From Yuukianura sp. NJ FZ-2021 (lineage: Eukaryota): DNA of 64,000 bases. The translations under genes were made by a program, and so were the position numbers. Below, one piece after another: positions 9,301 to 33,258 of the stretch. The notes beneath the pieces were generated by a model. It was not told the DNA's origin. It worked only from the letters and a program-made list of their open reading frames with translations, and searched no databases. Location: the NCBI GenBank assembly GCA_046563655.1, contig JAJCTO010000010.1:930001-994000 (forward strand), given 5' to 3'. Every line of letters begins with the position of its first letter. The first letter of the stretch is position 1.

Positions 9301-11143
9301 TAATTAAATCATCAATGTATAGTACGTTATGAACCATCAAGGTGTCGCCTAGAACCATATACATACAGCGCGTAAAGGATTGGGGCGCAGTGCTAATTCC
9401 AAATGGAAGGTATTTGAAGGCAAATGTACCTTTAGGTGTACAAAAACCTAAATATTGAATACTATCGTCTGCAACGCGAATTCCCCAATATCCTTTCTGC
9501 AAATCACAGGTTGAATAGAAAGCGTGCCGAGTTTGTAACCATTCTAAAATAGCTTCCACACTAAGCATTGGAAACTCGATGGGAGCAATAATGGAATTGA
9601 GTACAGAGTAGTCGACACAGAAACGATAAGATTTAGTGCCATCGGGCTGAGTATGCCCTGGGACTAACACGGTACGTGAGACGTAATTGGTATTACATGG
9701 TACTATCCGTTGGTGTTTGAGTAATTCGTCAATTTGTTTGTTTTCGAACGCTGTCATTTCTGGCGTTCGCCGAGCTGGTTGGTTTCTGAAAGTATGCGCG
9801 TTAGGGCGAAGAATGACGTGATGTACGTAATTTTTAATTTCACCGATTTCTTTCTGATAAGCAAAAACATCTTTGAACTCAACCAAAAGGTCCTGTAACT
9901 GCACCTTTTGAGTTGAGTCTAAATCTGGGTTAATTCGTGCAATTATACGATTCACATGTTCCTCCATCAATTTTGGTGGTAAGTCGAAAATACTAAAAGT
10001 CGGTAGAGTCTCATCAATCCTTTGCTCGTCCATACTGGGAATGGATTCCGTTGTGGCTGCGTTAAGATTCACCAACGTGGAAAGACCGTGTGGACTCTGT
10101 AACTCACTGGGGAGGTGCGGACCGTCGCGCCAGTGCTCTTCCGTATCCTGGCCGTGGATATCGGAAAAGGTTTCATTGCAAATCGCGTTGCAATCTTCCC
10201 GGGGAATAAACTCTTCGCTGTCTGTCGACAAACACGATTCAGGGACCCTTGTATAAACCATGTTTGAAGTTTCAGCGGTACACTCAAGAAACTCTGTGAT
10301 ATGTGGCTCATGATCATCATCATTGTGGGTCATCATGCTCGTGTTCGGTTCAAAACCATGTAGGTTAGGAGTTACAGATCGACCAGCTGCGGATTCCGTC
10401 GAACCAGCATCCTGGGAGTCACAACCCACATGATTTTTAAAAGGTACCTGAGGGGAACCAGAGCATGGGAAAAAGGGGAACAGCCTGGGCTGTGTAACTT
10501 TCTTGTCAACAATTTTCAACGTAAAAACGGCACATCGGAGTGAAGCTTCGTTATCGCGTAAGGGAATCATTTGTATTATTGTGCCTTTCCAACTGATAAT
10601 TAAACGGTCGAAATCGATTATAACACGTTGGTTTCGTAGGAAATCGTTTCCCAGTAGGACTTGTAGAGCGAAATTTTTTACAACAACCATGGAGTGAAGT
10701 ACCTTTTGTGCATCAATTTGTATAGAAATGTCAGCCATTCCGAGTGAGGACGTAAGGGTGTCACCAATACCTTTCAGCATGACTGTGCGAGCCATCGGCT
10801 GAATACTACTATTGTTAACTAACTGTGAACTAATTACGCTAACTTCTGCCCCTGTATCCAACATTATTTCTGTTTGGTGTTCGTCGGCATAACCACATAC
10901 TTTCAGAAGACCATTCGTCCCCATCTGCAAAACAAACATGGAATTCGTGTCATCGGTTTGGAGAACGGGAGCTGTGTATGTAGTGGAAATTGCGTTGATG
11001 GTCAATGGCTGACTTATGGAGTGTAGCTGGTGTTGAGAGAATTGATCAGTGGGTCGGTAGGGATAGCATTGGGTTTGCGGCTCTGTGGTGATGGAAGGGA
11101 CGGATGGGGGGTGGCCGCATACCCCGTCCCTTGGTTGTTTTTT
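6320..11143 (-). CDS. pol: Ty3/Gypsy Pol polyprotein (PR-RT-RNaseH-IN plus C-terminal extension), entered by -1 frameshift
   Basis: LDTGAEVS protease; RT motifs RFCVDY, DLQKGYW, LPFGISTAP, YIDD; RNase H LYTDAS/KEMYA/TDS; integrase HHCC, SDILGP, TDNGS, AER, GSY. The frame is uninterrupted. Confidence 0.95.
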   Translation of the reverse strand, partial: KKQPRDGVCGHPPSVPSITTEPQTQCYPYRPTDQFSQHQLHSISQPLTINAISTTYTAPVLQTDDTNSMFVLQMGTNGLLKVCGYADEHQTEIMLDTGAEVSVISSQLVNNSSIQPMARTVMLKGIGDTLTSSLGMADISIQIDAQKVLHSMVVVKNFALQVLLGNDFLRNQRVIIDFDRLIISWKGTIIQMIPLRDNEASLRCAVFTLKIVDKKVTQPRLFPFFPCSGSPQVPFKNHVGCDSQDAGSTESAAGRSVTPNLHGFEPNTSMMTHNDDDHEPHITEFLECTAETSNMVYTRVPESCLSTDSEEFIPREDCNAICNETFSDIHGQDTEEHWRDGPHLPSELQSPHGLSTLVNLNAATTESIPSMDEQRIDETLPTFSIFDLPPKLMEEHVNRIIARINPDLDSTQKVQLQDLLVEFKDVFAYQKEIGEIKNYVHHVILRPNAHTFRNQPARRTPEMTAFENKQIDELLKHQRIVPCNTNYVSRTVLVPGHTQPDGTKSYRFCVDYSVLNSIIAPIEFPMLSVEAILEWLQTRHAFYSTCDLQKGYWGIRVADDSIQYLGFCTPKGTFAFKYLPFGISTAPQSFTRCMYMVLGDTLMVHNVLYIDDLIMGSDSWANHLIDLRRTFERLRAYGVKLAIHKCYFGYFEVPLLGLLVNREGIRHNPEKLKAIQQIPYPTTVKKLQRILGSFNWFRRSIPNFSSLTQPLYQLLRKDKPFKLDKIHEDRIDEIKKVLASPPLLHWFDRNRETRLYTDASDIGIGGILIQVTVDDLEVPVAYHSSLLKGRQLDFPAFMKEMYAIVTCCSVFHMYLSDIKFTIITDSLPLVQAKSSLTPAKRWNRDLTKWAVIMMSYTYDLKYRRGRNMDFPDMLSRAPSDALTEDSAILPDALVLVHEIFLTQEGDAKSEWIGQTNSFDWKTLQLADAECTRIKTAWLKNDIHTRARYIIKDDILYDMRQGFSRVYVPVVQRKCILNEVHNNIISGHMGFTKTYQRLSRAYAWPSQKRDLLNHIQACEKCGKMKRHYGKIPGLMGELPVGNYPMECCASDILGPVAASNGFIYIINMVCLLTKYTILAPLKKIRSSDIAKFWENEVFLRFSTPRIIYTDNGSSYTSEFLKAFTQIFGTSIRHVTYYGKTGNSLAERTHSTCHSIIRSFVNDNHSNWSQNLRHVNFCLNTAPLKSLKYHSPHSLMFHQQPTFPYTSPLEIDNRDLYTKQQTFQELWSQIRTAIAEQQRKTQEQANKFRMPVFYKVGDKVRLTYPRQGERGQTTKWVAYYWGSYEVLQKLGPDVYLVKCSTTGRQFKTHVRRMRLISIDDVMETESLEIMVDPEQFLEDILCFDQLIEYIFQIQEWGHTTDILAGSTLPVHFFVLNAQVTDERIPDDQILQLCLTHKLTDIILINSAHPITFNVHKSNNTKVQVTTPEGLFIHQIVNPITLRKYIELRDKLLSTDVLIIGEGWEECFLSILLLSSMHHRMYISVFGGLMHILTQSKHKDRILTFLKTEQYGFQKQARCSGLSASDIALPEDKMENVESDLHKELWSEKGSHAIPMSSESPPPSPILNSSPPDSNPDKSEQQTPESCQLREISRPRRITKPPDRLTYSKF

Positions 11144-12621
11144 GGCTGAGCACGGCAATCTGCATCACTGTGTTTGGTTGACTGATGAAATGAACACCAA
11201 AGGCCATATGCTTCCGGTCGTCGACTCATGCCATTATCGCTGCGATGTCGAGAACAGTTCTGGTCGGAATGCCCACTAGTGTTATGATAGGTGCAAAACT
11301 GTCGCGGCGTGCCTGGGGCCCGACAGTTGCTCGCGATGTGGCCAAGCTGGGAACAGCGGTTGCAGCGGCGACGAGGGCACTGTGCACTAATATGATTGGG
11401 GTCGTTGCATACGTAACACCGCCGAGCTAATCCATTTCCGCGGGCTGGGTTACCCTGCCCACCACCACGGGATCGTAACGGCTTCGAATATCCCCCAACT
11501 CGGGTATTTACCCCGAAGTGTTCAGCAGTGGTGTAATCTGGTGGCGTCGGTTGTGGCTGAAGAGAAGTAGATGTGCCCTCGTTGTGTTGCTTAACAATGT
11601 ATGTATGCATCTCTTCGATGATGCGTCCAAATTTATCCAATTGCTCTGTCTGTCCCGCCAGGACCGCTGGAGCTTGGGTCATAACATTGACATCTTTCTT
11701 GTGTAAAAGTAGCTCATTTGTTTCTTCAATTGATTTCATCGCTTTTAAGAACTCGTCGATACTTTGCGGCTTCTGTGCTCCAAGAGCTGTCAAATTGGAT
11801 GGACGTAAATTGCGGATAAGCCAACGTACTTGGCGGGATTCTGGCATATCTGGGTCCATCTGTCGAAGGACATTGGTCAGATCGTAAGTATATTCCGTAG
11901 CAGATTCGTTCAGATGTTGACGTCTATTAATAACTTTTTGTTCAGCTGACATAGTACTAGTGTTGCCAAATGCTTTGATGAGAGCTTGTTCCACCATGCC
12001 GTAGTCAACTAACAGGGCGGGGGCTGGTGGTGATGTTGAACATCGAGTGGATTCCAAGAACGAAAAAAGCCAAGCTTCGGCAGTACCGGTTAAATGATTA
12101 CTCAGCAAAATCGGCCATTCAGATCGTGGGATTGAGTTCCCGGTCATCGCTAATTGGAACTTGGTGAGGTACCGCATAACATCCTCTCCAGGTTTGCCGC
12201 TGAACGTCGGTACCTTAATTTTATAATGTGTTTTGCCGGAGTCGGACTTAGCTCCGACCGACGTTGACGCTTGGGACATTGTGATTGGAAGATTGTGTAA
12301 ACCTTGGAATGGTGTTGTAGGGAATGGTAATGAAGTGGGGATGTGCGTAGGTGATTTGGGGTCACTGAGGGTGGATGGAAAGGTTACTTGAGGGAGAGGT
12401 AGCGGTGAAGGGATGTAGGGGGGTGGGTTCGAGGGGTTAAGTGAGGTTTGGGAAGTGGCTTTCGGGAGAGGTGGGGCGCTAGGAATAGTAGACGGCAAAA
12501 CTACCCGAGGTTGTAAGTTCAGTTTCCCCTTGTGTTGTGAAAACGCGGGAGTTTGTGATTGTTCGGTGTTAGGATGAGGAGGAGGTGATGGGACAGAGGA
12601 CCGTGTAGTTATCTTGGGCAT
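11014..12621 (-). CDS. gag: Gag with Pro-rich N-terminus, capsid domain and four zinc knuckles
   Basis: Capsid start KVPTFSGKPGEDV; two CCHC knuckles (CYVCNDPNHISAQC, CNRCSQLGHIASNC) and two CHHC knuckles (CTYHNTSGHSDQNC, CSFHQSTKHSDADC). Overlaps pol. Confidence 0.93.
   Translation of the reverse strand: MPKITTRSSVPSPPPHPNTEQSQTPAFSQHKGKLNLQPRVVLPSTIPSAPPLPKATSQTSLNPSNPPPYIPSPLPLPQVTFPSTLSDPKSPTHIPTSLPFPTTPFQGLHNLPITMSQASTSVGAKSDSGKTHYKIKVPTFSGKPGEDVMRYLTKFQLAMTGNSIPRSEWPILLSNHLTGTAEAWLFSFLESTRCSTSPPAPALLVDYGMVEQALIKAFGNTSTMSAEQKVINRRQHLNESATEYTYDLTNVLRQMDPDMPESRQVRWLIRNLRPSNLTALGAQKPQSIDEFLKAMKSIEETNELLLHKKDVNVMTQAPAVLAGQTEQLDKFGRIIEEMHTYIVKQHNEGTSTSLQPQPTPPDYTTAEHFGVNTRVGGYSKPLRSRGGGQGNPARGNGLARRCYVCNDPNHISAQCPRRRCNRCSQLGHIASNCRAPGTPRQFCTYHNTSGHSDQNCSRHRSDNGMSRRPEAYGLWCSFHQSTKHSDADCRAQPKNNQGTGYAATPHPSLPSPQSRKPNAIPTDPLINSLNTSYTP
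11095..11143 (-). promoter_or_regulatory. -1 programmed ribosomal frameshift signal
   Basis: A AAA AAC heptamer (11143-11137) in the gag frame, followed by a 9-bp stem AAGGGACGG/CCGTCCCTT. Pol is in the -1 frame. Confidence 0.88.
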
Positions 12622-13114: not shown

Positions 13115-13164
13115 CTAGGTTGGGTTAGGTTAGAATAGGTTAGGCTAGGTTAGGTTAGGTTAGG
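13115..13164 (+). repeat. Short degenerate (TTAGG)n tract
   Basis: ctaggttgggttaggttagaataggttaggctaggttaggttaggttaggg; TTAGG is the common arthropod telomeric repeat. Confidence 0.7.
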
Positions 13165-14004
13165 GTAATCCCATTACGACCTTGCCTAATGTTCCAGTTT
13201 TGAGCCCCAAAATAGTGCACTGAATTGATGTTCGTAGTTTGTGGAGTAAAATAGGTTAGGTTCCTAAAGATGCACCTAATATATTGTCGGTGTTGCCATG
13301 GCAATGTAGTATTAGCGAAAAGAGCGTAAATCAACCGGCATCAAATCAGTGATATCGAACTGAGATTTGTGCATGATCAACAAATGTGAACACTGAGCAG
13401 GATGGGTCGAATATGCCTTCTTTTAAATCGAAAACTCTCATTCAGGATACCATTCTCAACCGCTGATTCACCTTTCCCCCCGGAAACAACTGTCTCACGT
13501 TCTCAATATCAATAATCTCAATAACAGTCAACGAACCCTAATCTTTAACTCTACTTCAACCGTATTTCACCGTATTTCCAATTTCTAAATTCTAAATTCC
13601 AAATTCCAATTCCAAATTCCACTTCACCCTAAATCTAAACTAAATGTAAACGAAGCTGTAACTTGATAGGGCAATTGCCAATGTCAACTAAACTAATGGA
13701 TTGATTGATTAAGTCGAAGACGGTTCAGGAAGAAGCACAGTGTGTTAAACTAAGTGCATAAGTTAATCAGTCGAAAATCGCTTGTTTATAATGATGTCAT
13801 GCAAAGGTAAATGTTGACTCTGCTGGACTCTGTTGACATATTATGAATTTAAGTCAGCATTTCTCCCCTCTGAACAGGCTGAATTTAACAACGTAATTAG
13901 ACTAGTCTATAGTATAACTTAAACTAGTATAAATTGAACCGCTACCTAACTGTCAGAAAATGACCCGATCAGAACTCCGTTGGTCATAAACACTTCAAGG
14001 GAAG

Positions 14005-14263
14005 GCGAAACCAAAACTGTTTTGCGAAGCCACGATACTGCGGTTACGTAAAGTAGCCGCCAACTTCTACGTTGTTAGTTTAGTACTTTGAGTACAATGG
14101 AGACCTAATGAAAACATTTGAGTCTTAGATAACCCCCCGACTGCGATGGGGCTTATGGTTCATTGAAAAGGGTCTGAAACAATGTTACGGACAGACGGAC
14201 AGACAAAGTCGTATCAATAGTCCTCTTCAGCACGTCTACGACGTGCGTCTCCAGGAGACCAAA
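14005..14263 (-). mobile_element. Possible non-autonomous Helentron/DINE-like (HINE) fragment
   Basis: Minus strand starts TTTTGGTCTCC, then a hairpin GCACGTC-gta-GACGTGC and a GTCTGTCCGTCTGTCC microsatellite. Boundaries are uncertain. Confidence 0.35.
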
Positions 14264-15613
14264 AGCAAAATGCCCAAGTCAACGTTTATGTATCTCTTGT
14301 AATCATAAGTGTGCCTCATGCAGGAAATTAGGCGTTGAGTGCGTATTAAAGCCATGTATGTTCGGCGTGCGACCATTTTTCGAGAGTGAAGTTGAACTGC
14401 GGGTGTCAGCAGGGCGGAAGGTGCTGATGTGGAAAATGGGAGACGTGGAAGAACACGCATCTCCCAGCAGGTGCACGAGGTGGGGATCCAAGTGCCAGTG
14501 AGGCCCCGAGCGTGGGTCGGAATACGATTTAGGTCAAGCGTCTGCGACACGCGGGGCAGAGTGCGATTTTGGCTGTGCGACGTCGGTGCGTGGTTGCGAC
14601 CACCGCACGCGGAAGCGGGTGCGATCTTGGCCATGCGGCCACGGTACTCGAGGGTATGGCGTGATACTTATTGTAAGTTAACAAAGCAAAAATACCCCTC
14701 ACCAAGCTGGGCTTATACAAGCAAATCTAAGGCGGATTTAAGTCAGAATAAACACCCTCAAAACAGGCGGAGTTGAAGATCAGAGTTACAATGGCCATCA
14801 GAAAATGAGGATCTCGAGACAACTGGGTTGTTTCTCAAAAATATGTGGAGTATAATGTTGAACTATGCGGCGAAATGAGAAGTCAGTAACGCTAAGCCGC
14901 CGTCCCCTACTACGTTGTAGAGTGAATGATTTGAGTGCAAAGTTACATCCCTAGGCTGCTGCATTAAATCCTTACTTAAGGAAGCCAATTAGTAAAATAA
15001 AACCAGGTTGAGATTAACAAGAAGGCGGGATGCGTCGGACGTGAGGTGGTGCGTGGTGTGCCGTGTTGTGTCGTTTGCGAGTAGGCACCCCCCATGGTAT
15101 TTACATGCGACAACGAGCGTAGTGTAAATCAGAGGAATAGTGGAGACAGCTGCATCCAGATAAGCAAGAGGTAGCAATTTAAATGCAAGTTAAAGGATGT
15201 ACTGTCGTTATCGTGAAACCATGACCCTCAGTCACACAGTGGGCGATATAAGATTGTGGTTATGCAGAAGAATCTGTCGTTATCAACAGGATGACCCAGG
15301 GTAAGGTTCATGTTGAAGAGACACTCATTTAAGCGGAAATCAAGGCAAGTGGTTTGAATGGTTTTATCTTTCCTGTGATATTGTAGCCCCATTGGAATTC
15401 GAGAGCGAAAGGAAACAATGTTCGTGGCAGTCGGAACTGATATGTGGGCATGACGTAATGGATTTTATTCTAATTATGGGAAGAAGCATAAATCGATACG
15501 GGAAAGGCTAAAATTAGCATATTTATAACCACTCGTAGGTATTAAGAGCATGGTGCACAAAACTGGAAGATGAAGACTGTAAGGACGACTGGGATAGGAA
15601 AGGGTAGGTCACA

Positions 15614-17410
15614 TTAAATTCGGGGGCATTTGATCATCCGGTCACAAATTTGGCCCTCGATTACCCGTTTTAATACCGGCCTCGATGCGGTTGCTACCTG
15701 GTACCGCTCGAGGCGGTGTCTGTCCGCTTGGGAAAGCGGAGGTTGCAGATGGTTCAATTTAACGACTGCGTGTGGCATGCTGCGTTTGATCATTTGCGCT
15801 CCTTTAACAGTTAGTTGAGCACAGAAAATGGTTTCGAAGTAAGAAAGGTTGAGTCGAGTCGCGAGGGTAACAAGGCTTAAAGAAGAGAATCCATAACCTT
15901 TTAAAGTCAAATGACATAGCTGGGGACAATCTAACAGTCCAAAGTAAATGGCACAACTAGTCAGAAACTTGGAGCTCAAATACAGTTCCTTCAGTTGCAG
16001 GAGCTGGGAGAGTCGAGGGTTGTATTTATGTCGGTCTAATGAGTAAATTTGTCCGTCTGTCATGAGTTCCAGGGCGGTCTGCATCAGCTTCTGGTCGGTT
16101 CCAGTTATAGCTTCATCATCATAAAGGCCATCATTGGCTATCAGCGTGGTTAAATTAGGAAGGGACGTAATCACTGCTCGGAAGGCCTTGTTGGTCAAAA
16201 ACCGGATATTCAATGTGCGCAGGTTAGGAAACCAGGAGCCCCAGGTGCGTATAACGATTGGAAGAACCTTGTATTCGGGTTCAATTTGATCAATAAGTAG
16301 ACTGTGCAATGATATGTTGGGAGTTGGGGGATCACGGGAGTAGAAATGATTGCTTAGGTTACGCGCCTTCCGAAGTGTGAGAGAAAGCAAATTAGGGATT
16401 CGATGTATAAATTCCAGTACGTAGAGAGGGTGATAAGAAATGAATTCGAGGGAGGTGAGGTGAGTGAAATTTTGAAGATATTTAAAATGTTCTAGCCTGC
16501 TAACATTAGCTCCGGTTTGATAGTCGACAGCATATGTGAAGTCCATTATTAGTGTCGTCAGAGTGTGACAGTAACTATTGACAAGTGTGTGAATGGAGAA
16601 AGCCGATTGCCTTTGTGTTATTACCCAACTTAATTTAGTTAGTGGGAAGGATCGGTGCTTGAGTTGGTCCGGGTGTGTCCAAGGGTGGAATGGTAAATCA
16701 AGGTGCTGGAGGCGTGGAAAGTAGTGGTCTTCCATACTTAAAACAGCGTCGAGGATAGGTGATGTGTTGGCAGAAGCTCGTATTGGCTCCTCCACGATAT
16801 GGCCGAAGAGATCCGTATGCGTTGGCTGGTATGGATTTGTGGAAAGGAATTCCACATTGGGCATAGAAGAGAAGAGGAAATGAAGGAAATTGGTTTGTTG
16901 GGTCCGTTGGATTAGAGTAAAAATTGTATCATAATCTAACGTAATACGTACAGTGTGAACCTTATTTAAAATTCTTCCAGATGTCGGCACTTTGGTTTTA
17001 AAGATATTAGGTGTAGGGAGAGTGCCGAGTGTGAATGATAGTTTGGTTAAATTAGGCAAAAAGTGAAAAGCTAAAGTTGGTATTAAGACAGTCCACGTGG
17101 GCTTAACGAGATCCAATGTTGTAACATGGATGCCGATGGTTTGGGCCAGGCTGATTTCGAAGCGTAAGCCAGACAAGAACCGGAGGTTGCAGGGTCTCGG
17201 GTGGGTACGTAGGAGGTCACGTGCTTGGTCCTCATTACTAATGCAAATGGGGTGGGCTCGCCTACTCAAGACGCGACTAACTTCCTTATTCCAGAGCTTC
17301 GAAACTTGCCGGCATGATTTTAACTCGGCCATGGAAAAGTACATCAGTAGTATTTCCAACATCTCTGGAACCCGGAGGGGGTTTGTTTTTCCTTTATGTA
17401 CCACTTTCAT
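15614..17410 (-). CDS. F-box / leucine-rich-repeat protein (598 aa, intronless CDS)
   Basis: N-terminal F-box (NPLRVPEMLEILLMYFSMAELKSCRQVSKLWNKEV) followed by many LxxLxxLxL repeats (LPNLTKLSF, FPRLQHLDL, FPNLRTLNI, CPQLCHLTL). Acceptor TTTCTACAG just upstream of the ATG. Confidence 0.88.
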   Translation of the reverse strand: MKVVHKGKTNPLRVPEMLEILLMYFSMAELKSCRQVSKLWNKEVSRVLSRRAHPICISNEDQARDLLRTHPRPCNLRFLSGLRFEISLAQTIGIHVTTLDLVKPTWTVLIPTLAFHFLPNLTKLSFTLGTLPTPNIFKTKVPTSGRILNKVHTVRITLDYDTIFTLIQRTQQTNFLHFLFSSMPNVEFLSTNPYQPTHTDLFGHIVEEPIRASANTSPILDAVLSMEDHYFPRLQHLDLPFHPWTHPDQLKHRSFPLTKLSWVITQRQSAFSIHTLVNSYCHTLTTLIMDFTYAVDYQTGANVSRLEHFKYLQNFTHLTSLEFISYHPLYVLEFIHRIPNLLSLTLRKARNLSNHFYSRDPPTPNISLHSLLIDQIEPEYKVLPIVIRTWGSWFPNLRTLNIRFLTNKAFRAVITSLPNLTTLIANDGLYDDEAITGTDQKLMQTALELMTDGQIYSLDRHKYNPRLSQLLQLKELYLSSKFLTSCAIYFGLLDCPQLCHLTLKGYGFSSLSLVTLATRLNLSYFETIFCAQLTVKGAQMIKRSMPHAVVKLNHLQPPLSQADRHRLERYQVATASRPVLKRVIEGQICDRMIKCPRI

Positions 17411-20400
17411 GGTGTGGCTGCTGTAGAAAGTTAAAACTCGGTCAGAATAAAAAAGTGTAGGAGAATGTGGGAGTCTACATCATAAAGTAAAACGCAAAGG
17501 AATTCGGAGTGTCGATCATGTTACACGATGGTGTGACATGGACGGAGAAAAATGAGCATTATATGTGAGACTACTATATTTCTTGTGTGTTTCCCATTAC
17601 AGGATGGACAGAAACTCGGGTTGGAACTCTACCTGGCGGTCGATCCTGCGCTGATGATAGAGATGTGAAAGAATGCTAGCATGATGTCTAAACAACGTCC
17701 AGAGTGTGACTTTAATAAGTAAGTTGGGGTGGTGAGAGGGAAGGTTTAGTATGGGGCCGTGTTGGAGAAAAGGTCAACTGCAGACAGGCTTTGTAATAAT
17801 AGTTTGTGGTCTGTTATAGATTACCCTGGGAAGACGGATAGCTAAGGTCAAGCGGACCTCGCGACCCGTGTCGTAATGGTAGAAATGATGGGGAAATTGC
17901 GAAGGACTGTTAATAAATTGGAAGAAGGAAACAAGAGCGATAACCAAAACCGCCTCGGTGCCATGGCCGGATGCCTTAGAAGTACTGAAATATATATGCT
18001 AGCACTGAGTCAAGACGGCTACAATGTATTGTTCAAGGTCTATAGATATCAACGAGAATAGAAAGCTGACTAGCGTTTAAGCCTCGCCTTGACCTCGGGA
18101 TTTGTTGAGACGAGAGAAAATAGAATAGTAAGTGAAAAGTAAACATGGGGAGAAAGATGGTGAAAGTACTGCAAAATGCATTGAAATAATAAAATAGTGA
18201 CTGCAGTCCTATGCCCTTCGATTCACACTTCGAAGGACGGCAGCAGGAATGTACAGGAAGAGGGACATTCGCGTAAGCGGATTTTCCAGCATACGTCAAT
18301 AGTGATGGTTGAATGTATTGTGGATAAAACTTACTTGCGTTGGTGGTTATGTGTACTGTTAATTGTGAAACTCCCCAAGTGGATAGAATTAGCTAATCGG
18401 ATCGGGTTACGGACTGATGGAAGTTAAGGCAGAGACAGATGCACGAAGCTAAGACTATGCTCAACTAATCCACTCCTGCGCTGCGGAGGCCATTATAATT
18501 ACGTTTGATGGACGCACAGCGACTCGACATGGGGAAGGAGATGGAGGAATAAAGGGAGGGTGGTTTGTTTTGTATAATGTGCGAAAATTAGGCATCGACC
18601 CTGTGTTTGGGTGAGAAGGAGCGTGACGACTGAATGGGAAATTCCCACATCCAAGTTAACGAGGACAAGGGCAGCAGCTTTTTACATTGTTTTCGTGATG
18701 GTCTATGTTTGGCGTGGTGTGGCCAAAATCTGAAAAACCAGTGGACACGCACGCCCTCCGCAATATAAAAGTGTCTATGAATATGCATTTTCGCTAAATT
18801 CACATGGACCGAGCGAAGCCGTGTCCATAAATGCGGAAATGAAGTTGTGCGATGTAACTACAAAGAAAACCTTCCAGATGACCTTGTGAATGAAAGAGGG
18901 GGACAAAAAATTGTTTGCAAAACAATGTAAGAATGAGCACAAGGAAATTATGTGCCAAGGTGAGCGTGTGCGCGCATGAGTAAAATTTGGCGTTATATCC
19001 CAATGAACTTGGGTGTTGTTGTGTCCAAAACCAGTTTTTGTGTCATGGTGGTGCCAAGTCACGCCATTGTTATTCTTCCGTCTGGGCTTGACCAAGGGAA
19101 CATGAGACAAGGTCGACGAGAATTACACTTCCTGGATCCATCAAGTAGTTGGATCTTTGTTGAAGACAAGGACACAAAAAATATGCGCAAAAAGAAAAAG
19201 AACCAACCGCTCAATTCTTCCTGGTTCTGGTGTCAATGGATACGCCAAACTGGACTATTTAAGCTGGGAGCAATGCATCTATGGAGTTTCTGTTGTCCTT
19301 ACAACTGACCATCTGCGGCAGCCATCAGATCTAGGTTCGGTACTTAACCTGGTCTAACCTAACACTTGTTCTGTGGTACGCCCTGTGTCTTGTTCAACAA
19401 AACAAAAAGCAACCCGAGGTAAGCAATTATACCCGCAAGAGAAAAAAAAATAACGTTCGTAGTGGGATAAAACAAGAGAAACACGTATTGAACCACATTC
19501 CGTAGACTGATTCGTGCGGTGAAAGTGAAACGAATCAAAGAATTAGGAAGCAAAGACAAGTAACAGAAATTAGAGTGCCGCAGCAAGGTTTGTAAAGAAG
19601 AAAATAGTTTCCCCTTCAACAGGTTAGGCAATAACTCAAGAGTTTTAATCTTTATTTCGAAATTAGCAAAACTTGGGTCATCGAGCCTTTCTATGGTAAG
19701 GATTTATATACAAGCAAATAGGATGGGAGGGAAATCAGAATTAAAAAAAAAAAAAAAATTGTTTGGACCGACTTTTCTCGTACACAGGACTTATGGCCAA
19801 ACCTATTAAAGCATGTCGTCGCCATAGAAACCTTGCTGTCGCAGTGTGTTAGTAAAAAGCGGAGAAAAGCTGAGTGAGTTGAATATGGGCCTATAATTAA
19901 TTTGTAGGACTAGGTGGCTCCGCTACCTTTTGTAGAACAATTTCTGATAACTACTGAAGATTAGGCATGTTTTAGAGTCAGGAGAAAGGTTTAAGATCAA
20001 CGTAGGTAGTCACCTAGAGCCTTCACATGTACGGGAGAGTATGGCATGACTTTGAAAGCGTTTAACCCTTTGAAAAGGTACAACGGATTTAAGAAAGTGA
20101 GGTATGAATTATCATTGTTGTGTAAGTTTCAGCGTGGGAAGCTGAAAGTTTGTTGATCCGTTGGGATCCACGCAGCCGCGTGTCGCAGAGTGTGATGCCA
20201 TTAATTATATTTCTAAATCCACTCACAAGGTCCATGTTTGTACTTGTATCAGCATCCCCAGAATTGAAAAAAGAGGGGGGTTTATGATTTTTTATGAAGG
20301 CAAGTGGAGTTATGTTGGAATTTCCCGTCTTCCTATTCAATCAAAGTGTGGAAACCATTCCTGTTGCAGTAAGGTTAGATTATCGTGCTTGTGCTAGCTT

Positions 20401-21234
20401 GGGGAAGAGTGATGTTGTATAGCAGCAATTGGAGAATTAATTAATGAATTGAATTTGAATTAATGGACGCATAATCAAAAAGTTGTATTATGACACGGTG
20501 CAACTAGTTAACGGTAAATAGAAACTTTCGCTACCGTATGGTTACAAGGACACTCAATAAACCGAGCCCAACCCGAGTGTTGTCTTAGGTTCAGTTTTCA
20601 GGGCTATTCGATCCATTACGGAGAAACAACTACTGTAACAATCATGCTGCTAGCAGTTATTAATCTGTAGATTACTGATTTGCTCAACGTGCTGCTGATG
20701 AAGTGAACCAATGCACGGGGCGTCTGTTGGGTTTTTGTAGTTTATTGCAAACTATGAGGGGCGCATCGAAGCGTAAAAGAGGAAACCAAATGCGAATGTG
20801 TGCGAGCGAAATGGATGACGTACTGATCAACCGGAATACGTGGGTTAAATGAGATTGAGACCTTCCCGAAAAGGTAACCAAAGTATTGTTCCCCTTTGTA
20901 GGTAGTCAAGCGACAGAATCACTGGCTGTAGTGCGGCTAGGGTGGCCTAACGCAACGCTACCCTCGCTGTACAATAACGTAAATTAACTGTCAACCCCTT
21001 AATTTAATCCAAAAGCGAGAACCGGTGTATAAAATAGCGTGTGCCGGTCTATGTGTCCGCGGTCGAGAGGATATATAAAACACTTAGACAATCCCGCTTG
21101 CGCAATAAAGTTGTGTGGGCTAGTCTGATTCAACAAAGTCTAACCTTTTGCCGAGTATGAGTAAAGAGCGACCAGTTGAATGACGAGTGGCAGTGCCTCG
21201 TTGTGACATGTTGTTTTATCGTGTTTAGATAGCA

Positions 21235-22194
21235 ATGTGGAGGCAACCTACTCGGAGCCAGTTCGTGTACACTCATCCATGTTTGGCTGCCAGCGCCGCT
21301 CAATATATTACCAAATTGCTTTTTCAAAAGTTGCCATTCGATGGGAGTGCGGGGGCCGAGGAGAACGTTGCGCTGCTGCGAGAGTTACCTTTTGCGAATG
21401 GAGGGGAGGCATACGATGACGAAGACATAGCAGTGCTGCCGGATCCGAATGACGCAGAGCCCAAATATCATTCGGACCATGTCATGTACACCCTTCCGAC
21501 TGTTGTAGTCTCAAATATCGTGTCATATCTAAACACTTTAGAAGTACAAAATGTTTCTATGTTTTTCCCAGTATTTCGCCGAGTGGCAAGGCGCAGGATT
21601 AAAAACATGGAAAAGGCGCGTAAAAAATTTGCGCGCTTCATACGATGTAGAGATAGGTATGCCACTACTATATTAACCTGCTCCGTATTCAAAACGCTGC
21701 CATTGAGCCTCTCGCCCATGACTTTTCTATCCATTGTTATGTATCTAAGCCGATTTGACTTATCAATAGATATAAACGTGGTAGGTCGTCATATGAGTGT
21801 GGTTGAATTGAGAAGTTTGTTACACAACAGGCGGTTAAGCAGAACCTTCCACGATGAGTTCAATTGGGTCTACATCTCAGAAGATGAACCATATCACTTC
21901 GACCGATCGTATCTGCTAGACCGTCGTGTGGTTAGCACGTATCGAGACATCGCTTTTAGTTATCGGTGGTTGAGCCAAACTGTCCGCACCTCCGAAGTAT
22001 CAGGGCGTCTACTTACCACTTTCCCAGAACATTTCGAAACGTTTGTGGATGGGATGATGCGTCACTATCAAGCCCTGTCTCGATTAGAAGCTGCAAACCT
22101 CGAAGGAATAGCTAGAGACGTTCGGCGCCAAGTATTAATATTAATCAATAAGAACTTTGTGGAAAGAGATTTAGATGAGCCGTTAATTATTTAA
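21235..22194 (+). CDS. F-box-like protein (319 aa)
   Basis: F-box-like segment TLPTVVVSNIVSYLNTLEVQNVSMFFPVFRRVA; TATA-like tatataaa near 21072; AATAAA downstream near 22270 and 22298. Confidence 0.65.
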   Translation: MWRQPTRSQFVYTHPCLAASAAQYITKLLFQKLPFDGSAGAEENVALLRELPFANGGEAYDDEDIAVLPDPNDAEPKYHSDHVMYTLPTVVVSNIVSYLNTLEVQNVSMFFPVFRRVARRRIKNMEKARKKFARFIRCRDRYATTILTCSVFKTLPLSLSPMTFLSIVMYLSRFDLSIDINVVGRHMSVVELRSLLHNRRLSRTFHDEFNWVYISEDEPYHFDRSYLLDRRVVSTYRDIAFSYRWLSQTVRTSEVSGRLLTTFPEHFETFVDGMMRHYQALSRLEAANLEGIARDVRRQVLILINKNFVERDLDEPLII

Positions 22195-22551: not shown

Positions 22552-25110
22552 ATGGGCCGTTCCCGCAAAAACAATCGTCAAACCGCAGATCCGCTACTGA
22601 GCTATAGGGGGTCGAGTCTGGAGAACTCTAACCCGTCCAGCAGAGAGAGTTCCCCGTTTCCTGTTCTACGGACCCTACTCAGCGCGCCCGGAACAATTAC
22701 TCGGCAGGTGAACATCATACCGCGTCAGAGGGGCACTGTAGGGCATAAGACAGTCAAGCAGACGGTAGTTAACCAGAATGACTCTAATTTGCCCATTACG
22801 ATCCTCGTGCCCAGGAATAACGGACCCAACCATCCACTACACGGTGGAAAAGTTCCTCGGGGAACCCCGATCTTATGTCCATCGCCCTCCACTGCCTCTT
22901 CCATAACTTCTCCCCCTCAATCGCCCGCTATTGGTAGTGCTCCTCGGACTCTAATGGACGAGGAAAGTCTGCCGGATGAATTGTTGTCTGCGTAAGTATT
23001 AATTTAGGCGAGTGGGGCGCGTGATTATTGACCTCTAAGAACTTGTTGATAACTACAGAGATACCATGGGATTGGAGGCTTCTACATGGAGACCGGCGCA
23101 GTCGGGTGGGGATTCGACCTCCACGCACCCAGCTGCAGATGATCTACTTTTTAGCCGTGCAGAATTACGTGTCATCGAGTACATGAAGTACTTCTTCCTC
23201 CCACCAGATGACCCAGCGAAATATAGAGGGGACTCGGTCACGAAGTCGTCGTGGGACTACAACCTCCTGCCACCCTTGCGTACTAGAGGATACGGCATGC
23301 AAATTGCGCGATTAATTTGGGGAATCCTGATGCCCTTCCTGACTCACGACCCCGATGTTTTGTTTAGAACGGTAAGTTGTATGTAGTCCCTCCTCCAAAG
23401 GGCGTTGCTAAATTTCTTTTTCTGAACTAGTTGAACCGCCTGCGAGGATGTTTACTGCAAGGCTACACAACTGATGAAGAAAAACGATTCTTTGCTGACG
23501 GGATTCTACACTGGGGATTCCGGTATACTGAAACCCATGGAACCTCTGGCAAAGACCTAATCCGAAAAATTTGTGAGGTAAGAAACTATTTACATGAATC
23601 AAAGTAAATCACATGTAATCCTATGATAACTATTTATGAACTGTCAGTGGTTAATTTTCTGCCCACGGCTACGGGAGGTCCGCATTGCCCAACGACGCAA
23701 TGTTCCAATTCGATGGGAGTCGTTCATGTCTGGCCGATTATTTTGGCATATTCAAGACGACCTGACGACTCTTAACAGCCGTTTTATAGGAAACGTCAAT
23801 TGGAAGGCCCCACCTCACAACTACTTTGAGATGTTTTCTGCTTGCCGTACCATGATTCGCGGCTTAGGAATTCGTTATGTAAGTAATGTAACGTGATTAC
23901 CCTGAGCAGAAATGTAGAGTGGTGCAACCTGACGAATACATTGATGATATTATGATTTTTGCAGCATTTAGTGGACGGAATTGAGAGACGTATCCAGGAG
24001 GAGTTTCCAGTCTCCAACACACCGTTACAACTTTCCAACGAGAAGATGGCATCCGCCAGCGGATTTTTACGAAAATTGGCGGGAATCATCCGAGATCGTC
24101 TTTTAAATCCAAACGTAATCCCTGATTGTGAACAAGACATCTACAACTTAGTGTCAATCTGCCCCGTATTACGAAAGGGTCAAGTGATGAGCAAGAATTT
24201 CTCCATCATGTAAGTACAGATAGATTGCCTCCGTCATCAATGTAAGTTGAACATTGGACTGGAATGAAACCACTACAACGTTTTCCGTTGGATCAGGTTC
24301 TGGGACACATCAGCCAACCAAATGCGATCGCTGGACACCCTGGATGAGACGCATGAAGAGATGAACCGAGAAGGATTTACCTACTATCGCTGCGACTTTT
24401 TAGCGGGCCGAAACAGCACACCAGAGATCTTAGCGGTTCCTCACTTTTTGGACATTGATCTGCCATCTTATCTAAAGTGCAGTCCGATCCATGACCCTAG
24501 TCGTTGGTTCTGTGGGTTCTGCGAAGCGGAAAATCACGCGAAAAGTCATTTTCCTGGAATTGCCAACGATCAACCTCCCAACACTTTTGATGACACGGAA
24601 GTGTGGAGGGAACACGTTCGACATCATCTGTCGGTTCCGAGAGTTGTACAAGCTTGCCCGTGTGACCGAGTTTCGGGGGTGGGGCGTGGAGAATGGCATC
24701 GCCATGTTTGTGTAGCGACCTGCTTATGCGGAACACCATGCAATACCGTAAGTTTAAATGAACGATTCGATCCTGCGGAAAATCTAAACCAATCCATCAT
24801 TGAATACTAGGTGGAAGAGCGGATCGAACATAGTTATAAACGACTGGAACGGAAGACCAAAACCCGAGGGTGCTGGTATGACTCGATTTGCAAGCGGAGG
24901 TTCCGAAGTGAAGCTGACCTGTACAGTCATCTTGCGTCCGATTGCGCTGTTTGCTACCGGTGTCATGAGGAGTTCAATTTGGAGAAAGAAAGTCGCGTAC
25001 AACATTTAGATCGCTGTTTCGCCTGCAGTTTTTGCGGAATGGCCCACGGCTCACAAACCGAGATGAATCAGTGTCCCATTAATTGTTTGAGACGTACATT
25101 CTATTTGTAG
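22552..25110 (+). CDS. Seven-exon gene, 708 aa, with Cys/His-rich (zinc-binding-like) C-terminus; function unknown
   Basis: Exons 22552-22991, 23059-23371, 23431-23577, 23648-23878, 23965-24209, 24297-24747, 24811-25110. All six short introns are GTAAG...AG with matching phases, giving 2127 nt in frame. AATAAA at 25220. Confidence 0.85.
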
Positions 25111-25249
25111 GTTACATTTAATTGCACGCAATATTTTTGTGTTAAAGTTGCGTCGCGGTTCGGTGGGGGTTCTAAGTAGATGGTGGTGGGTTTGTAGATT
25201 ACACAATGATAACAATTTTAATAAAGAAAAAAAAAAATTTTAATTCTAC

Positions 25250-25260
25250 CTTACCTTGTG
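25250..25260 (-). promoter_or_regulatory. Candidate major splice donor just downstream of the PBS
   Basis: CACAAG|GTAAG on the minus strand (intron starts at 25254), about 40 nt after the PBS. Confidence 0.55.
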
Positions 25261-25294: not shown

Positions 25295-25312
25295 ATCCGG
25301 TTCGAAGGACCA
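25295..25312 (-). promoter_or_regulatory. Primer-binding site, tRNA-Tyr type
   Basis: TGGTCCTTCGAACCGGAT, 3 nt after the LTR end GTCACA. It is complementary to the typical eukaryotic tRNA-Tyr 3' end (...CCGGCUCGAAGGACCA) with one mismatch. Confidence 0.9.
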
Positions 25313-25315
25313 TTA

Positions 25316-25696
25316 TGTGACCTCTCATCCTGGGTGAACCAGGACTCAGGCCGCATACGTCGCCGCGTAACAGACGGACTACTGGCTGCTTGACCTCTGT
25401 GCCCAGGTCCGAACCCCACCGAGGTGGCGCAGGTCCTGGGTGCCAGCTCTACGGATCATGGCCGCAGAATATGGCTCAATGCCATCACAAAGGAAACAGT
25501 AAACGAAGGGAACGTGTGGCTACTCTCCTTTATTGCTTGTAGAATCTCCCTACTCCAGTAACTGGACGTCACCGTGACAGGCGCTGGGAAGAGGAGCTAT
25601 CTCGAGGACAACTCCTCCTCAACCGAGCGCTCTCTACTCACTGACTGACCATCGGGATATGACTGAGAACCTAGCCTCATCCCGAGTGCCGTCACA
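25316..25696 (-). repeat. Long terminal repeat (381 bp), 5' LTR of a minus-strand element
   Basis: 6-bp inverted termini TGTGAC...GTCACA; AATAAA at 25534-25529; immediately followed by the PBS. Confidence 0.8.
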
Positions 25697-26065
25697 CACC
25701 CCTGCTTGGAGACGAAGTGAGGAACCCCGCCCGGTGGGGTTACTCACACTAAAACCTGATAAAAAAGTTCAACATTAGTTCATAAGTGCACTGAATTTCA
25801 CTAAATGCGGAAGACAGAATAGTAGATGTTCAACCTTTAAGATTTCAAAGATTTTAACTGAAATTATCAGAGACGTAATCAGTTGTCTTAAGCCATGCGC
25901 ATGAAGATGTGGTAGTATTCCGGATGGGAATGTTTGACATGTCACTGTAGTTTAACTGAAAATAACTATCTTAATCCCAAGCTCACAAGGAAGTTAACCT
26001 AATTAGCAATTAGTAAGAAGAATCAAAAACTTTAGTAAATGAGTTAGGAACTCTATTACGTTTAG

Positions 26066-26335
26066 ATGCCGCGTAGCTGTACTTGGTGTGGCCGGCCGAA
26101 TTCCGGTGGAAAACCAAGAACGCGTTTGTTAAAACCCGACTCGCTAAACCAGGAACTCCGTATTCCAATGGAACACTTCTGGATGGAGTTCTGCGGAGGA
26201 TGCCAGAAGAAGGCAATGTGCGAACTTGAGGAAGGAGACACCCTTCGATTTTATATGGACTATCGCGTCAACCCTAGTTGTGCACTTTCAGCATCTTACA
26301 AAGACAAACCTCTAAAATATAATCCAAAGAAATAA
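26066..26335 (+). CDS. Small CxxC...CxxC protein (89 aa)
   Basis: CTWC and CGGC pairs; AG acceptor directly before the ATG; co-oriented with the downstream cassette. Confidence 0.45.
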   Translation: MPRSCTWCGRPNSGGKPRTRLLKPDSLNQELRIPMEHFWMEFCGGCQKKAMCELEEGDTLRFYMDYRVNPSCALSASYKDKPLKYNPKK

Positions 26336-26474
26336 GCATACGGGCAGGGCATCTGTTCTGAAGATTAGGACATAGTACTCAGGGGTAGCGAGCTAGAACA
26401 GTAAAATAAACAGAATATTGTAAAAACAATAGACTAAAGACACGTCATTTTCAGAATTCAAAATTGTAAAACCC

Positions 26475-27278
26475 ATGTCATTGAACGGCCTCCACAACCT
26501 GCCAGCTGGATTCATAGACGCAGTTCGAGAAAGAAATCAACCAAATCAGCGGTACGAGAGAGCGAAGTTTCTCGCCTCGAGGAGTGTAATCGAGTTGAGT
26601 CTCCTCAAAGACTGTTTTCCCGAACTAAAGGAACTGATAGACAGTTTGGTCAAGACTACTAAGCTCGCCTGGAAACCACTGATCAACAAGCTAGAAATCT
26701 GGATTTGGGAAGATCCACGCTCTACTTATAGGTACCAGCTGACTCACTGCAGACACGAGCTAATCTACAGATTCGCCCAGATTAGAATCGATCGATTCCC
26801 GCTAACTCTCGTGTCATTCGTCCGACACTGTGAAGGAATACTTGATCTTGGGATCAAGACAGACGAGTTCCTGCGACTTGGCTTACAGGAAAAGCTAGAA
26901 CTAACTCACTTCACCACCATACACATCACCCGTCAGCCAGGAGCTCCACTAACTGATTTTCGGACCGACAGTCTGATATTAGCTGTAACTCGACGACCCT
27001 ACCGACCATACTGCTTCCGAGACTTGGCCGACATCCTTCACTGCAACAGCGGACGGAGGGAAGAAGTAAAGTACTTCTTCAGTCTTTACGAAACGGAGAA
27101 AATCATTTACTGGAGTACGCTGTCTGAACGCCAAGTCCAACGCCGAGAAAAGACAAAGGAGACTCAGGAACGCAGAGGGTTGAGTACAGACGACCAGCTC
27201 ATCGACGAAATTTGTATCGCAGGCGACGCTTACGCCGAGACTTGCGACGACTACTTGGAGTCAGATAAGGAAAACTAG
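26475..27278 (+). CDS. Cassette copy 1, gene A: unknown protein, possibly degenerate F-box family
   Basis: 267 aa; close paralog of 31120-31923; weak similarity to the 21235 protein (FPLTLVSFVRH..ILDLGI vs SPMTFLSIVMY.SRFDLSI). Confidence 0.8.
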   Translation: MSLNGLHNLPAGFIDAVRERNQPNQRYERAKFLASRSVIELSLLKDCFPELKELIDSLVKTTKLAWKPLINKLEIWIWEDPRSTYRYQLTHCRHELIYRFAQIRIDRFPLTLVSFVRHCEGILDLGIKTDEFLRLGLQEKLELTHFTTIHITRQPGAPLTDFRTDSLILAVTRRPYRPYCFRDLADILHCNSGRREEVKYFFSLYETEKIIYWSTLSERQVQRREKTKETQERRGLSTDDQLIDEICIAGDAYAETCDDYLESDKEN

Positions 27279-27301
27279 TTTCATTTCATTTTCCTTTCAT
27301 A

Positions 27302-28213
27302 ATGGCTTACTTTGAGCCCATAGAGTTCACTTTACACTCTCCTGACGCCAAGGCACCTCACTGGGGGGAAGCCCATGAGGCTGGCCTTACTATTTACACT
27401 TCTGCGGATTATGACATTTCGCCAGGGGACCGTTGTGTTGTTTCTACCGGAATCGCCTTGCGTATTCCGTTAGGACTTTTCGGAAGAATAACTTCCATTT
27501 ACAGACATACGCTTAGCCATGGAATAACCGTTGCCCCAGAGGTCATGGAAGGGGGTACAATATCAGGCATTTGCAAAATAACGATTTTCAATCATGGCAA
27601 GAAATCTTTCCATCTAAGAAAGGGTGATGCAATTGCGCAGGTCACGTGTGAAAAATTCTACAAACCGGAGATCAAAGACAAACCCTTAGGGTTTCACTAC
27701 CACGCTGAGGACGATGACAAATGGCATATTAACTATCAAGCAAATGAGGGTCTTAGTAACATGTTAGGGAATCGGGACGACTTAAGTCGCTTTATCCGAA
27801 TCATCCCTTTTTCAAAGGAGGTTCGAGAACGAATCGGATTTCAAAAGTTGGAAATGTGGGCAAATCCAGGTCCTAAGAAAGACCTTCATGACCTTTTAGA
27901 AGAGATCAGTGATTGTGGAAGTACAAGACCCATTCAAGTCGCGATAAAAGCTTCTTTCTTCGTTCAACTCGATGTTGAAGATATACGGCGCGTAGGAACA
28001 AGGTTTCAATATTGTCCACCATACTTTTCTGACATGTACCCTGGAAATATTTGCGTGGATTTAAATGGGTTCTTTCCGAGAAAAGGCTTCGCCTTTCTAT
28101 TAGGACAGTTGAGCAGAATCCCTAAAGAAAAAGTTCCCGAGGAACTTATAAAAAGAGTTATTAAATTGGCAGATTCGGCTCCTGAGGACCGCGAAGGATG
28201 GGTAGATTATTAA
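27302..28213 (+). CDS. Cassette copy 1, gene B: pseudo-dUTPase fused to an unknown C-terminal domain
   Basis: dUTPase scaffold (AGLTIY, VSTGIALRIP.GLFGRI, IFNHG, KGDAIAQ), but the catalytic residues of motifs 1-3 are replaced and motif 5 is absent. Confidence 0.85.
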   Translation: MAYFEPIEFTLHSPDAKAPHWGEAHEAGLTIYTSADYDISPGDRCVVSTGIALRIPLGLFGRITSIYRHTLSHGITVAPEVMEGGTISGICKITIFNHGKKSFHLRKGDAIAQVTCEKFYKPEIKDKPLGFHYHAEDDDKWHINYQANEGLSNMLGNRDDLSRFIRIIPFSKEVRERIGFQKLEMWANPGPKKDLHDLLEEISDCGSTRPIQVAIKASFFVQLDVEDIRRVGTRFQYCPPYFSDMYPGNICVDLNGFFPRKGFAFLLGQLSRIPKEKVPEELIKRVIKLADSAPEDREGWVDY

Positions 28214-28374
28214 TAATTTTTCTTTCTCCCAGAAAAAAACAAAAACTATAATGTATATTAAATGGGACTAATCATAGATTCATAGGTAGTCAGTAATTTT
28301 AGAATGGGGTTAAAATGAAAACTATTCATGTTTAATTTTTTTTTATTGACTTATTTATTTTCACCATAAGAAAA

Positions 28375-29802: not shown

Positions 29803-29996
29803 AATTTTCCATTTGTGCACCATAAGAGTTAAACTTACTAAATGGAGTTACTTAAATACTTGGATAGGGTAATATCATGATTTCCTTTTATCAGTTCAGG
29901 CTTCAAGTTCATGTCATCAAAGTTTTAGACTAGGTCAGATCCACCACCAATGTTAATGTTAGGTTGTACAATTTTGGGGATCAAATAAGCTAGTTA

Positions 29997-30037
29997 AAAT
30001 CTACGAGGACGTAGATTTAGGTCAAGTTGGGGAATAA
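29997..30037 (+). promoter_or_regulatory. Pre-PPT hairpin plus polypurine tract
   Basis: Perfect 9-bp stem AAATCTACG-agga-CGTAGATTT (CGAGGACG core, common upstream of Gypsy PPTs), then GGGGAATAA abutting TGTAAC. Confidence 0.7.
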
Positions 30038-30643
30038 TGTAACGCCGGATTTCGAGCCACCCGGAGACTTTGAGATCTCCCGGTGGGCCGAAACCGGACG
30101 ATTGTAAAATAAACATTAGTTTTAATAGAACAAGTAGGAAAGCAAAGACTCAGCTTCTTTTCCTCTTTCTTAAGAGGATCAAGTGTCAAAGATTTATGAC
30201 AATTGATCTTTGACATGACGGATCAGTGGGAGGGCAAGCAACAAAGTTGCTTGTTTAACAAGTTTTTCACTTGTTAGACATGTGAATGTCAACTCATCAA
30301 AAGTTGACATTCATACAAAGTGCCCAGATAATCAACTTGCATAGTCCCACAACTTAGTTCAATCTTGGACTTTAATGACAGAACAGGATCATAGATCCTG
30401 GTCATTAACGTCCAACTATGAACTCAGGTCGCTAAGCGTCCCTCGGTTGAAGGACAAGCTGGGTCAAGAGTAAGGTTATAAATATAAGTAACAACTTGTT
30501 AGCGTTAAGTCATTTCTAGATTAGCTTCTGGCCAAGTACTCTCTCTCTCCAACTTAAGGTCTAAGGTCGAAACACTAAGTCTTTTGCAAATAAACACTGT
30601 TCTTGGGAAGATCTTTCGTCATTCTTCAACTCCACGTCTCACA
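30038..30643 (+). repeat. Putative 3' LTR of a plus-strand element (right end uncertain)
   Basis: Starts TGTAAC after the PPT; TATAAATA at 30477; AATAAA at 30589; candidate end GTCTCACA at 30643. No PBS follows and no second copy is in the window. Confidence 0.6.
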
Positions 30644-31923: not shown

Positions 31924-31956
31924 AATTCTCTTATTTTTAAATTTTAGTATTTTTCA

Positions 31957-33255: not shown

Positions 33256-33258
33256 TAC

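Follow-up and report, generated by a model that had tools for sequence, protein, structure and literature searches.

An env-bearing Ty3/gypsy element of a springtail carries an F-box/LRR gene and an F-box-like gene under purifying selection

Ty3/gypsy retroelements with an envelope of the glycoprotein B/herpes simplex virus (gB/HSV) type were surveyed as 'errantiviruses' by Chary & Hayashi (eLife 2026; PMC13524379), who list springtail members among those of invertebrates. The survey extended 3 kb beyond gag and excluded pairs of long terminal repeats (LTRs) more than 14 kb apart, and its main text does not mention F-box genes; because of these two limits it could not reveal cargo of the kind described here. 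We analysed a window of 64,000 nucleotides from Yuukianura sp. NJ FZ-2021 (GenBank assembly GCA_046563655.1, contig JAJCTO010000010.1; C10:930001-994000). It contains most of an env-bearing Ty3/gypsy element of 27,559 bp, in minus orientation, that carries an F-box/leucine-rich repeat (LRR) gene, FB1, and an F-box-like gene, G2.

Own-genome searches spanned the 98.7-Mb, 22-contig assembly. The element is complete: comparison of adjoining genome tiles with the window located the 3' LTR at C10:928190-928622, just left of the window, with three differences from the 5' LTR in 433 bp (99.3% identity). The primer-binding site (PBS) sits 3 nt inside the 5' LTR, and two tRNA genes of the genome agree with it in the 15 templated bases; the identity of this tRNA as Tyr was read from the sequence, ARAGORN giving the anticodon only as 'gt'. 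LTRs with a target-site duplication (TSD), a tRNA PBS, the pol order protease, reverse transcriptase (RT) and RNase H followed by integrase (PR-RT-RH-IN) and a gB-type env after pol are all present, and the backbone probably adds a new member to the gB-env Ty3/gypsy group. Gag, PR-RT-RH-IN pol, gB-type env, LTRs and a tRNA PBS are common to it and to the errantiviruses (PMC13524379). It differs from them in its size (27.6 kb), in a gene-bearing leader of 12.7 kb between PBS and gag and in extra 3' open reading frames (ORFs), and its Tyr PBS has no counterpart among the 17 springtail rows of the survey. FB1 and G2 lie in this leader, both uninterrupted, head-to-head and 3.8 kb apart on opposite strands (Table 1), where an earlier note, made from the letters of this DNA, had placed them as open frames.

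A second complete insertion was found on C3 (~5703213-5729884, opposite orientation, ~95% identical, LTRs 99.8% identical, TSD AGTAG), in which FB1 and G2 are both intact. A more distant sister element on C5 (3615464-3649718; 34,255 bp, LTRs 99.8% identical, TSD ATGTA, pol 62% identical) has an FB1 homologue (29%) at the same place and strand and two tandem G2 homologues on the opposite strand; the head-to-head layout is kept, as is an intron-bearing antisense gene, gene 3. With two full insertions at different sites and a sister element carrying them, FB1 and G2 are retroelement cargo, as the earlier note had proposed. The contrary possibility of single-copy syntenic host genes is rejected; the genes travel within complete, recently inserted LTR elements. 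The C5 sister element also has a SET-domain ORF between its two F-box genes (C5:3640344-3640781); a search of the window for a remnant of this ORF or of the two extra sense ORFs of the C5 element found none. Related SET ORFs lie just outside an element on C1 and among remnants on C4. The window and C3 copies differ in leader segments 19290-21182 and 14262-14836, the C3 segment matching a remnant at C3:7.485M, and the number of synonymous substitutions per site (dS) between them, ~0.07 for the leader, climbs to 0.14-0.17 within the env region; both are signs of recombination between element lineages. No close relatives of the element were found in viral contigs or, using RT, in metagenomes; the RT alignment search gave 19 loci at only 24-48% identity.

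Ratios of nonsynonymous to synonymous divergence (dN/dS) were calculated by the Nei-Gojobori method between the window and C3 insertions unless stated otherwise. The value for FB1 is 0.23 (30 synonymous and 22 nonsynonymous differences; P = 2e-7) and that for G2 is 0.17 (14 and 8, respectively; P = 7e-5), against backbone values of 0.25 for gag, 0.10-0.11 for pol and 0.14 for env. A third, partial FB1 copy gave 0.19 and an independent G2-family pair gave 0.16. Selection on the protein is thus purifying for both genes, which makes them functional, maintained accessory genes as opposed to passengers or RNA decoys. The insertions differ at 6-7% of synonymous sites and each LTR pair by less than 1%, so the divergence arose mostly before insertion, during replication of the element. 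Between the sister lineages synonymous sites are saturated, with open frames and layout kept. Protein identity across this distance is 29% for FB1 and 26% for G2, versus 62% for pol, 54-55% for env and 49% for gag. The F-box genes are the most diverged parts of the element, as is often seen in host-facing genes.

Judged by its predicted structure, FB1 is a true F-box/LRR (FBXL-type) protein. The AlphaFold model (pLDDT 83, pTM 0.81) has three helices at residues 15-51 with an LRR solenoid behind them, and its best Foldseek matches are TIR1, FBXL2, COI1 and MAX2 (E 2.6e-9 to 4.7e-9). In a 57-row alignment of the FB1 family, PF00646 is matched by 18 rows and PF12937 by 17 at E<=0.01. A word-index protein search with FB1 returned no relative among 7358 candidates. 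A profile hidden Markov model (HMM) built from five own-genome FB1-type sequences matched 320 proteins at E<=0.001, and five of the top ten, which were looked up, are named F-box-domain proteins of Orchesella cincta or O. dallaii; the likeness to springtail F-box/LRR families remarked on previously is thereby borne out. Between FB1 and its C5 and C4 copies the C-terminal LRRs are best kept (44-49% identity versus 22-27% at the N-terminus). FB1 and G2 are unrelated by BLASTP. An acceptor-like site precedes the start codon of FB1, and the C5 homologue has one 10 nt before its ATG; such a site is expected by chance in ~2.5% of 15-nt stretches of this leader. A splice-donor-like motif after the PBS has a similar counterpart after the LTR of the C5 sister element. 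The occurrence of both motifs in the two elements suggests a spliced subgenomic FB1 mRNA.

The 18 own-genome matches to FB1 were grouped by hand into 12 loci, of which three are intact in complete elements, seven are fragmentary or stop-bearing beside other element pieces and two are C2 genes among ordinary host ORFs; a further search added a third FB1-type locus on C2. The host gene at C2:4966k is interrupted by two GT-AG introns, and FB1 reads through at both positions; the first intron is considered to be ancestral because many database relatives terminate at that position. A tree was built from 17 rows, comprising six own-genome sequences and 11 of 150 database matches. In it the four element copies form a clade (support 96/91) that is sister (100/100) to the C2:4966k gene, P0001 (a database protein 58% identical to the C2:4966k product) and P0004; the same topology, with a support of 81, came out of a quick tree of 55 rows. 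FB1 nests inside the springtail F-box/LRR family on a longer branch than its host sister gene, and is ~30% identical to the host parent C2:4966k. The sister relationship of the element clade to an intron-bearing host gene, together with the lack of introns in FB1, points to one capture via spliced mRNA, and a single capture of a host F-box/LRR gene through mRNA with intron loss is the simplest reading of the sequences. Retrocopies of mRNAs mediated by LTR elements are known across animals (PMC5131818). Passage through an RNA genome fits this arrangement because the sense cargo is intronless, whereas six short in-frame introns are retained in antisense gene 3. The earlier suggestion that such elements spread F-box genes through the host gained no support: the flow seen is from host to element, and all element-type FB1 copies found outside complete elements are broken. 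Only one of at least 63 listed PF12937 matches, a model that misses degenerate F-boxes of the FB1 type, lies within 25 kb of any of at least 107 listed gypsy RT matches, with ~5% of the genome so covered.

G2 consists of a degenerate F-box-like motif (residues 82-110, ~21478-21564), followed first by a small alpha/beta domain and then by a helical hairpin, with model helices at residues 89-97, 101-107 and 112-135. Whole G2 has no match in Pfam. Its segment 82-110 on its own reaches E 0.034 and 14.5 bits against PF00646 (cut-off 20.5), and because the motif falls below the family threshold we call G2 F-box-like and not a member of the F-box family. Its Atlas leads include three F-box clusters (0.84-0.88). 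A word-index protein search with the G2 alignment found no relative among 5702 candidates, no full HMM search having been made for G2, and a fold search with the whole-G2 model gave a best Foldseek E of 0.24 and a best VIA Z of 7.0 for the helical hairpin only. The C-terminal part matches no known substrate-binding fold. The complex of G2(76-145) with O. dallaii Skp1 was modelled, with a score of 0.73 versus 0.00 for the best of three controls; contacts fall on Skp1 residues 99-146, with contact agreement of at least 69% and partner pLDDT of at least 73. The mark applied to this complex was reached by 51/78 solved and 2/108 mismatched pairs in a microbial calibration, and by 71/105 solved and 2/126 unrelated pairs in a eukaryotic one. 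Although the Skp1 used comes from another springtail, a host Skp1 exon is 97% identical to it over the last 58 residues; this identity and the Orchesella proteins related to FB1 make a springtail host likely. As modelled, the N-terminal motif of G2 would bind Skp1. At least four Skp1 paralogues occur in the host genome. The 12 own-genome matches of the G2 family fall into 10 loci, nine in elements or beside element cargo (C1:575k by eye) and one at C7:4140k; the surroundings of C1:575k and C7:4140k were viewed within ~1.5 kb. No host-type parent of G2 was identified among the 10 loci. An antisense F-box-like ORF of 257 aa at C3:7457169-7457942, directly upstream of a gag remnant, is weakly related to the G2 family.

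We lean slightly towards reading FB1 and G2 as element-encoded adaptors of SCF (the Skp1-Cul1 ubiquitin ligase) directed against host factors by which the element is kept in check. FB1 would be translated from the spliced subgenomic RNA, and an antisense promoter in the FB1-G2 interval would drive G2. Both proteins would load onto host Skp1 and mark for degradation the host's restriction factors against the element (of silencing, innate immunity or other kinds), as viral F-box proteins do. The element thus probably redirects the protein-tagging machinery of the host. Hijacking of SCF, as the earlier note had it, is plausible in view of the purifying selection on FB1 and G2 and of the docking of G2 on Skp1 in the model; the link to PIWI/AGO and to the degradation of silencing factors found no support. 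The analogy with polerovirus P0 is loose: P0 lacks LRRs, how it acts is under debate (PMC3588083), and the P0-driven loss of AGO1 goes through autophagy (PMC6593998). PIWI or AGO as a substrate is a guess, one candidate among many, and targets in the silencing pathways as a whole are unlikely. It is likewise doubtful that springtail env-gypsy elements are 'complex' retroviruses with SCF adaptors of their own in two unrelated forms (a captured F-box/LRR protein and a G2-type family, perhaps with gene A and relatives in other gypsy lineages; see below) that destroy Piwi-interacting RNA (piRNA), small interfering RNA or chromatin-silencing proteins.

Several observations weigh against an adaptor role. 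The direct Pfam F-box match of FB1 is weak (E 0.022, below the cut-off). F-boxes usually have the letters P-x-E and V-C-x-x-W, and G2 has neither. The pass of the G2-Skp1 model can stem from likeness to solved F-box-Skp1 complexes; because of this possible memory and the use of Skp1 from another springtail, the model speaks for likeness and not for binding. The fast divergence of the F-box genes may be relaxed constraint and not conflict. Three LTR-bounded members of the clade (C1, C10:1.06M and C3:7.98M) have no FB1 homologue; the C1 element (15.3 kb) has a G2 homologue and no FB1 match. Moreover, 16 of 21 LTR matches belong to an 82-83%-identical subfamily, in which eight pairs 9-16 kb apart (on C9, C5, C12 and C4) enclose no FB1 or G2 match; these are probably shorter, helper-dependent derivatives. 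Such relatives mean that neither gene is needed in cis, which fits a trans-acting or a dispensable function.

If the proteins are adaptors in form only, they might bind Skp1 or the substrate of the parent gene without degradation, titrating SCF or shielding the substrate. Such a decoy or dominant-negative role is an unlikely alternative, although G2 lends itself to it with a motif that is degenerate at a position which we take to be a Cul1 contact and with a C-terminal part unlike any known substrate-binding fold; the conservation of the C-terminal LRRs of FB1 could likewise mean that the parent's substrate is still recognized. A simple Skp1 sponge would not need the complete F-box and full LRR solenoid that FB1 is predicted to keep under selection, and FB1 retains only ~30% identity to the host parent. 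The adaptors might instead be active but directed at factors of the cell cycle, membrane or germline access, or at Gag, Pol or Env of the element itself. This we consider improbable. Viral hijackers of SCF do often hit cell-cycle and signalling proteins (PMC3588083), the env region is elaborate and no finding here points to silencing, but the SET-domain ORF between the F-box genes of the C5 sister element hints at a conflict over chromatin or silencing.

Readings that deny the proteins a function for the element fare much worse. Capture of mRNAs as retrocopies by LTR elements across animals (PMC5131818) could supply neutral passengers, and the genes could also be kept for host benefit at a fixed locus. 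The copy number is low (three intact FB1 genes in elements), and selection might formally act on a long-lived master locus. This explanation is largely refuted and very improbable given a dN/dS of ~0.2 between separate young insertions, in which synonymous sites have diverged far more than the LTR pairs, and given frames and layout that outlast synonymous saturation, whereas copies in dead elements decay. Hardly credible is a decoy at the RNA level as in Drosophila telomeric elements, in which a capture yields piRNAs that silence the host gene. The 140-235-bp capture class described there does include a fragment of an F-box gene (PMC13534243), but captures of the TART nxf2/aub/piwi type are short fragments of high nucleotide identity; FB1 is a whole ORF under protein-level selection with ~30% amino-acid identity to its parent, saturated synonymous sites and no BLASTN match to the host C2 tiles, and ~80% identity is already too low for targeting (PMC13534243).

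Gene 3 is also antisense cargo. Its last exon has a weak C2H2-like finger, dN/dS for three exons is 0.11-0.31, and it is kept in at least five related elements or remnants with no Pfam family assigned. A Plavaka transposase was considered for one gene 3 exon from an Atlas look-alike cluster (0.97, with the family on 45% of its members), and was dropped as Pfam did not confirm it. A short telomere-like (TTAGG)n run occupies 13116-13170 of the leader, just upstream of gag.

Beyond the 5' LTR, the studied element is inserted into a flanking LTR element (LTRs at 30038-31041 and C10:916132-917134, 98.7% identical, GAAC duplication) that carries cassette gene A. Gene A lies outside the 5' LTR, in a different LTR element, and is thereby ruled out as cargo of the studied element. 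The earlier note's view that gene A is related to G2 stands as a weak lead. BLASTP between the two gave nothing; profile-profile comparison gave a probability of 0.7% at first and, with more members, of 4% (E 0.011 over 196 columns), a score above those of 40/40 block shuffles. In a six-sequence search the G2 profile matched one of five gene A family members (E 3e-4) and an F-box-like ORF beside another gag (E 1e-5). Gene A may be very distantly related to G2. In another gypsy lineage (C8:6235k, L111:1342-2994, and C5:557k), tandem ORFs that follow the integrase are related to gene A and have F-box-like N-termini by eye. Nested insertions run across 25753-33170 and C10:903924-928189, where the flanking element appears to lie inside a third, related element; both outer elements carry a cassette of gene A and dUTPase, and the flanking element also has an exonuclease-like ORF (28375-29802). 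Further along are a fragment of a long interspersed nuclear element (33169-35991, minus strand; ORF1, endonuclease and part of RT) and satellite arrays (36450-64000, periods of 407-602 bp) with an uninterrupted BEL/Pao polyprotein ORF inserted within them (42407-47626, plus strand).

Table 1. Features of the element and of the adjoining insertion, in window coordinates.
Feature	Position	Strand	Description
FB1	15614-17410	-	Intronless 598-aa F-box/LRR gene on element strand; F-box at ~residues 12-50, then LRR solenoid
G2	21235-22194	+	Intronless 319-aa ORF, antisense to element
Acceptor-like site	17418-17440	-	Polypyrimidine tract and CAG, 7-10 nt before FB1 start codon
Splice-donor-like motif	25248-25257	-	~40 nt after PBS; candidate major donor
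5' LTR	25316-25748	-	433 bp, TG...CA
TSD CTAAA	25749-25753	+	Twin at C10:928185-928189 beside 3' LTR, left of window
PBS	25295-25312	-	18 nt, complementary to 3' end of own-genome tRNA-Tyr(GTA) and CCA
gag	11014-12621	-	Ty3 capsid-like, CCHC knuckles
pol	6320-10939	-	Order PR-RT-RH-IN (Ty3/gypsy)
env	3323-6181	-	Class III/gB-type fusion glycoprotein; PF24664 E 3e-11 (above cut-off), PF00606 E 5e-8 (below its cut-off)
Two further 3' ORFs	597-3253	-	597-2159, paralogue of env N-terminal half; other ORF 2246-3253
Gene 3	22552-25110	+	Cargo gene antisense to element; 708 codons in 7 exons, no internal stop; 6 GT-AG introns (59-87 nt)
Gene A	26475-27278	+	Cassette gene in flanking LTR element, beyond 5' LTR of studied element

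The current view is that animal retrotransposons escape silencing chiefly at the level of RNA; hijacking of ubiquitin ligases by counter-defence proteins has been described in true viruses. An LTR element with a selected full-length F-box/LRR gene and a nameable host parent, with two young insertions and a diverged sister for comparison, makes it testable whether accessory proteins that degrade host factors are encoded by endogenous retroelements of invertebrates; identifying the substrate would reveal what restricts these elements. Surveys limited to ~14 kb miss the accessory genes of this element class. Our literature search, which covered few subscription journals and no preprint supplements, found no published LTR retroelement with a full-length F-box gene under selection; a table entry elsewhere is possible.

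In size the element belongs with giant gypsy elements such as Ogre of plants (16-25 kb) and Burro of planarians (>30 kb); giant gypsy elements of planarians also have accessory domains touching ubiquitination (MATH/TRAF, BIR; PMC6431247). The extras of Burro are mostly in one polyprotein, and the term F-box is absent from that review, whereas the present element has separate genes on both strands, one of them with a traceable host gene. Other captures of host-derived coding sequence include the DEDDy, GDSL and dUTPase ORF3 of bdelloid LTR elements (PMC5408684), AlkB in orchid Ty3/gypsy elements (PMC9289625), the LTR-mediated retrocopies of animals and the short CG12520 F-box gene fragment in telomeric (non-LTR) elements of Drosophila (PMC13534243); as far as these sources describe them, no full-length selected F-box gene is among them. 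With the F-box/LRR family of springtails (Orchesella ODM99831.1 and CAL8137121.1; solved analogues TIR1, COI1, FBXL2 and Skp2) FB1 shares the N-terminal F-box and LRR solenoid, and it differs in being intronless and mobile. Polerovirus P0 and poxvirus ANK-PRANC proteins are parasite-encoded adaptors that bind Skp1 (PMC3588083), as FB1 and G2 may be. Like P0, G2 has no more than a degenerate F-box-like motif, set on an unrelated body (PMC3588083); its score against PRANC is at chance level (E 0.06), and no further sequence kinship to viral F-box proteins was sought. FB1 is unlike the viral proteins in being a canonical cellular F-box/LRR protein of traceable host origin, carried by an endogenous retroelement. 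Should springtail env-gypsy elements indeed destroy silencing proteins by means of SCF adaptors of their own, which is doubtful, an animal LTR retroelement would have a counter-defence at the protein level, in convergence with lentiviral Vif, Vpr and Vpu and with polerovirus P0.

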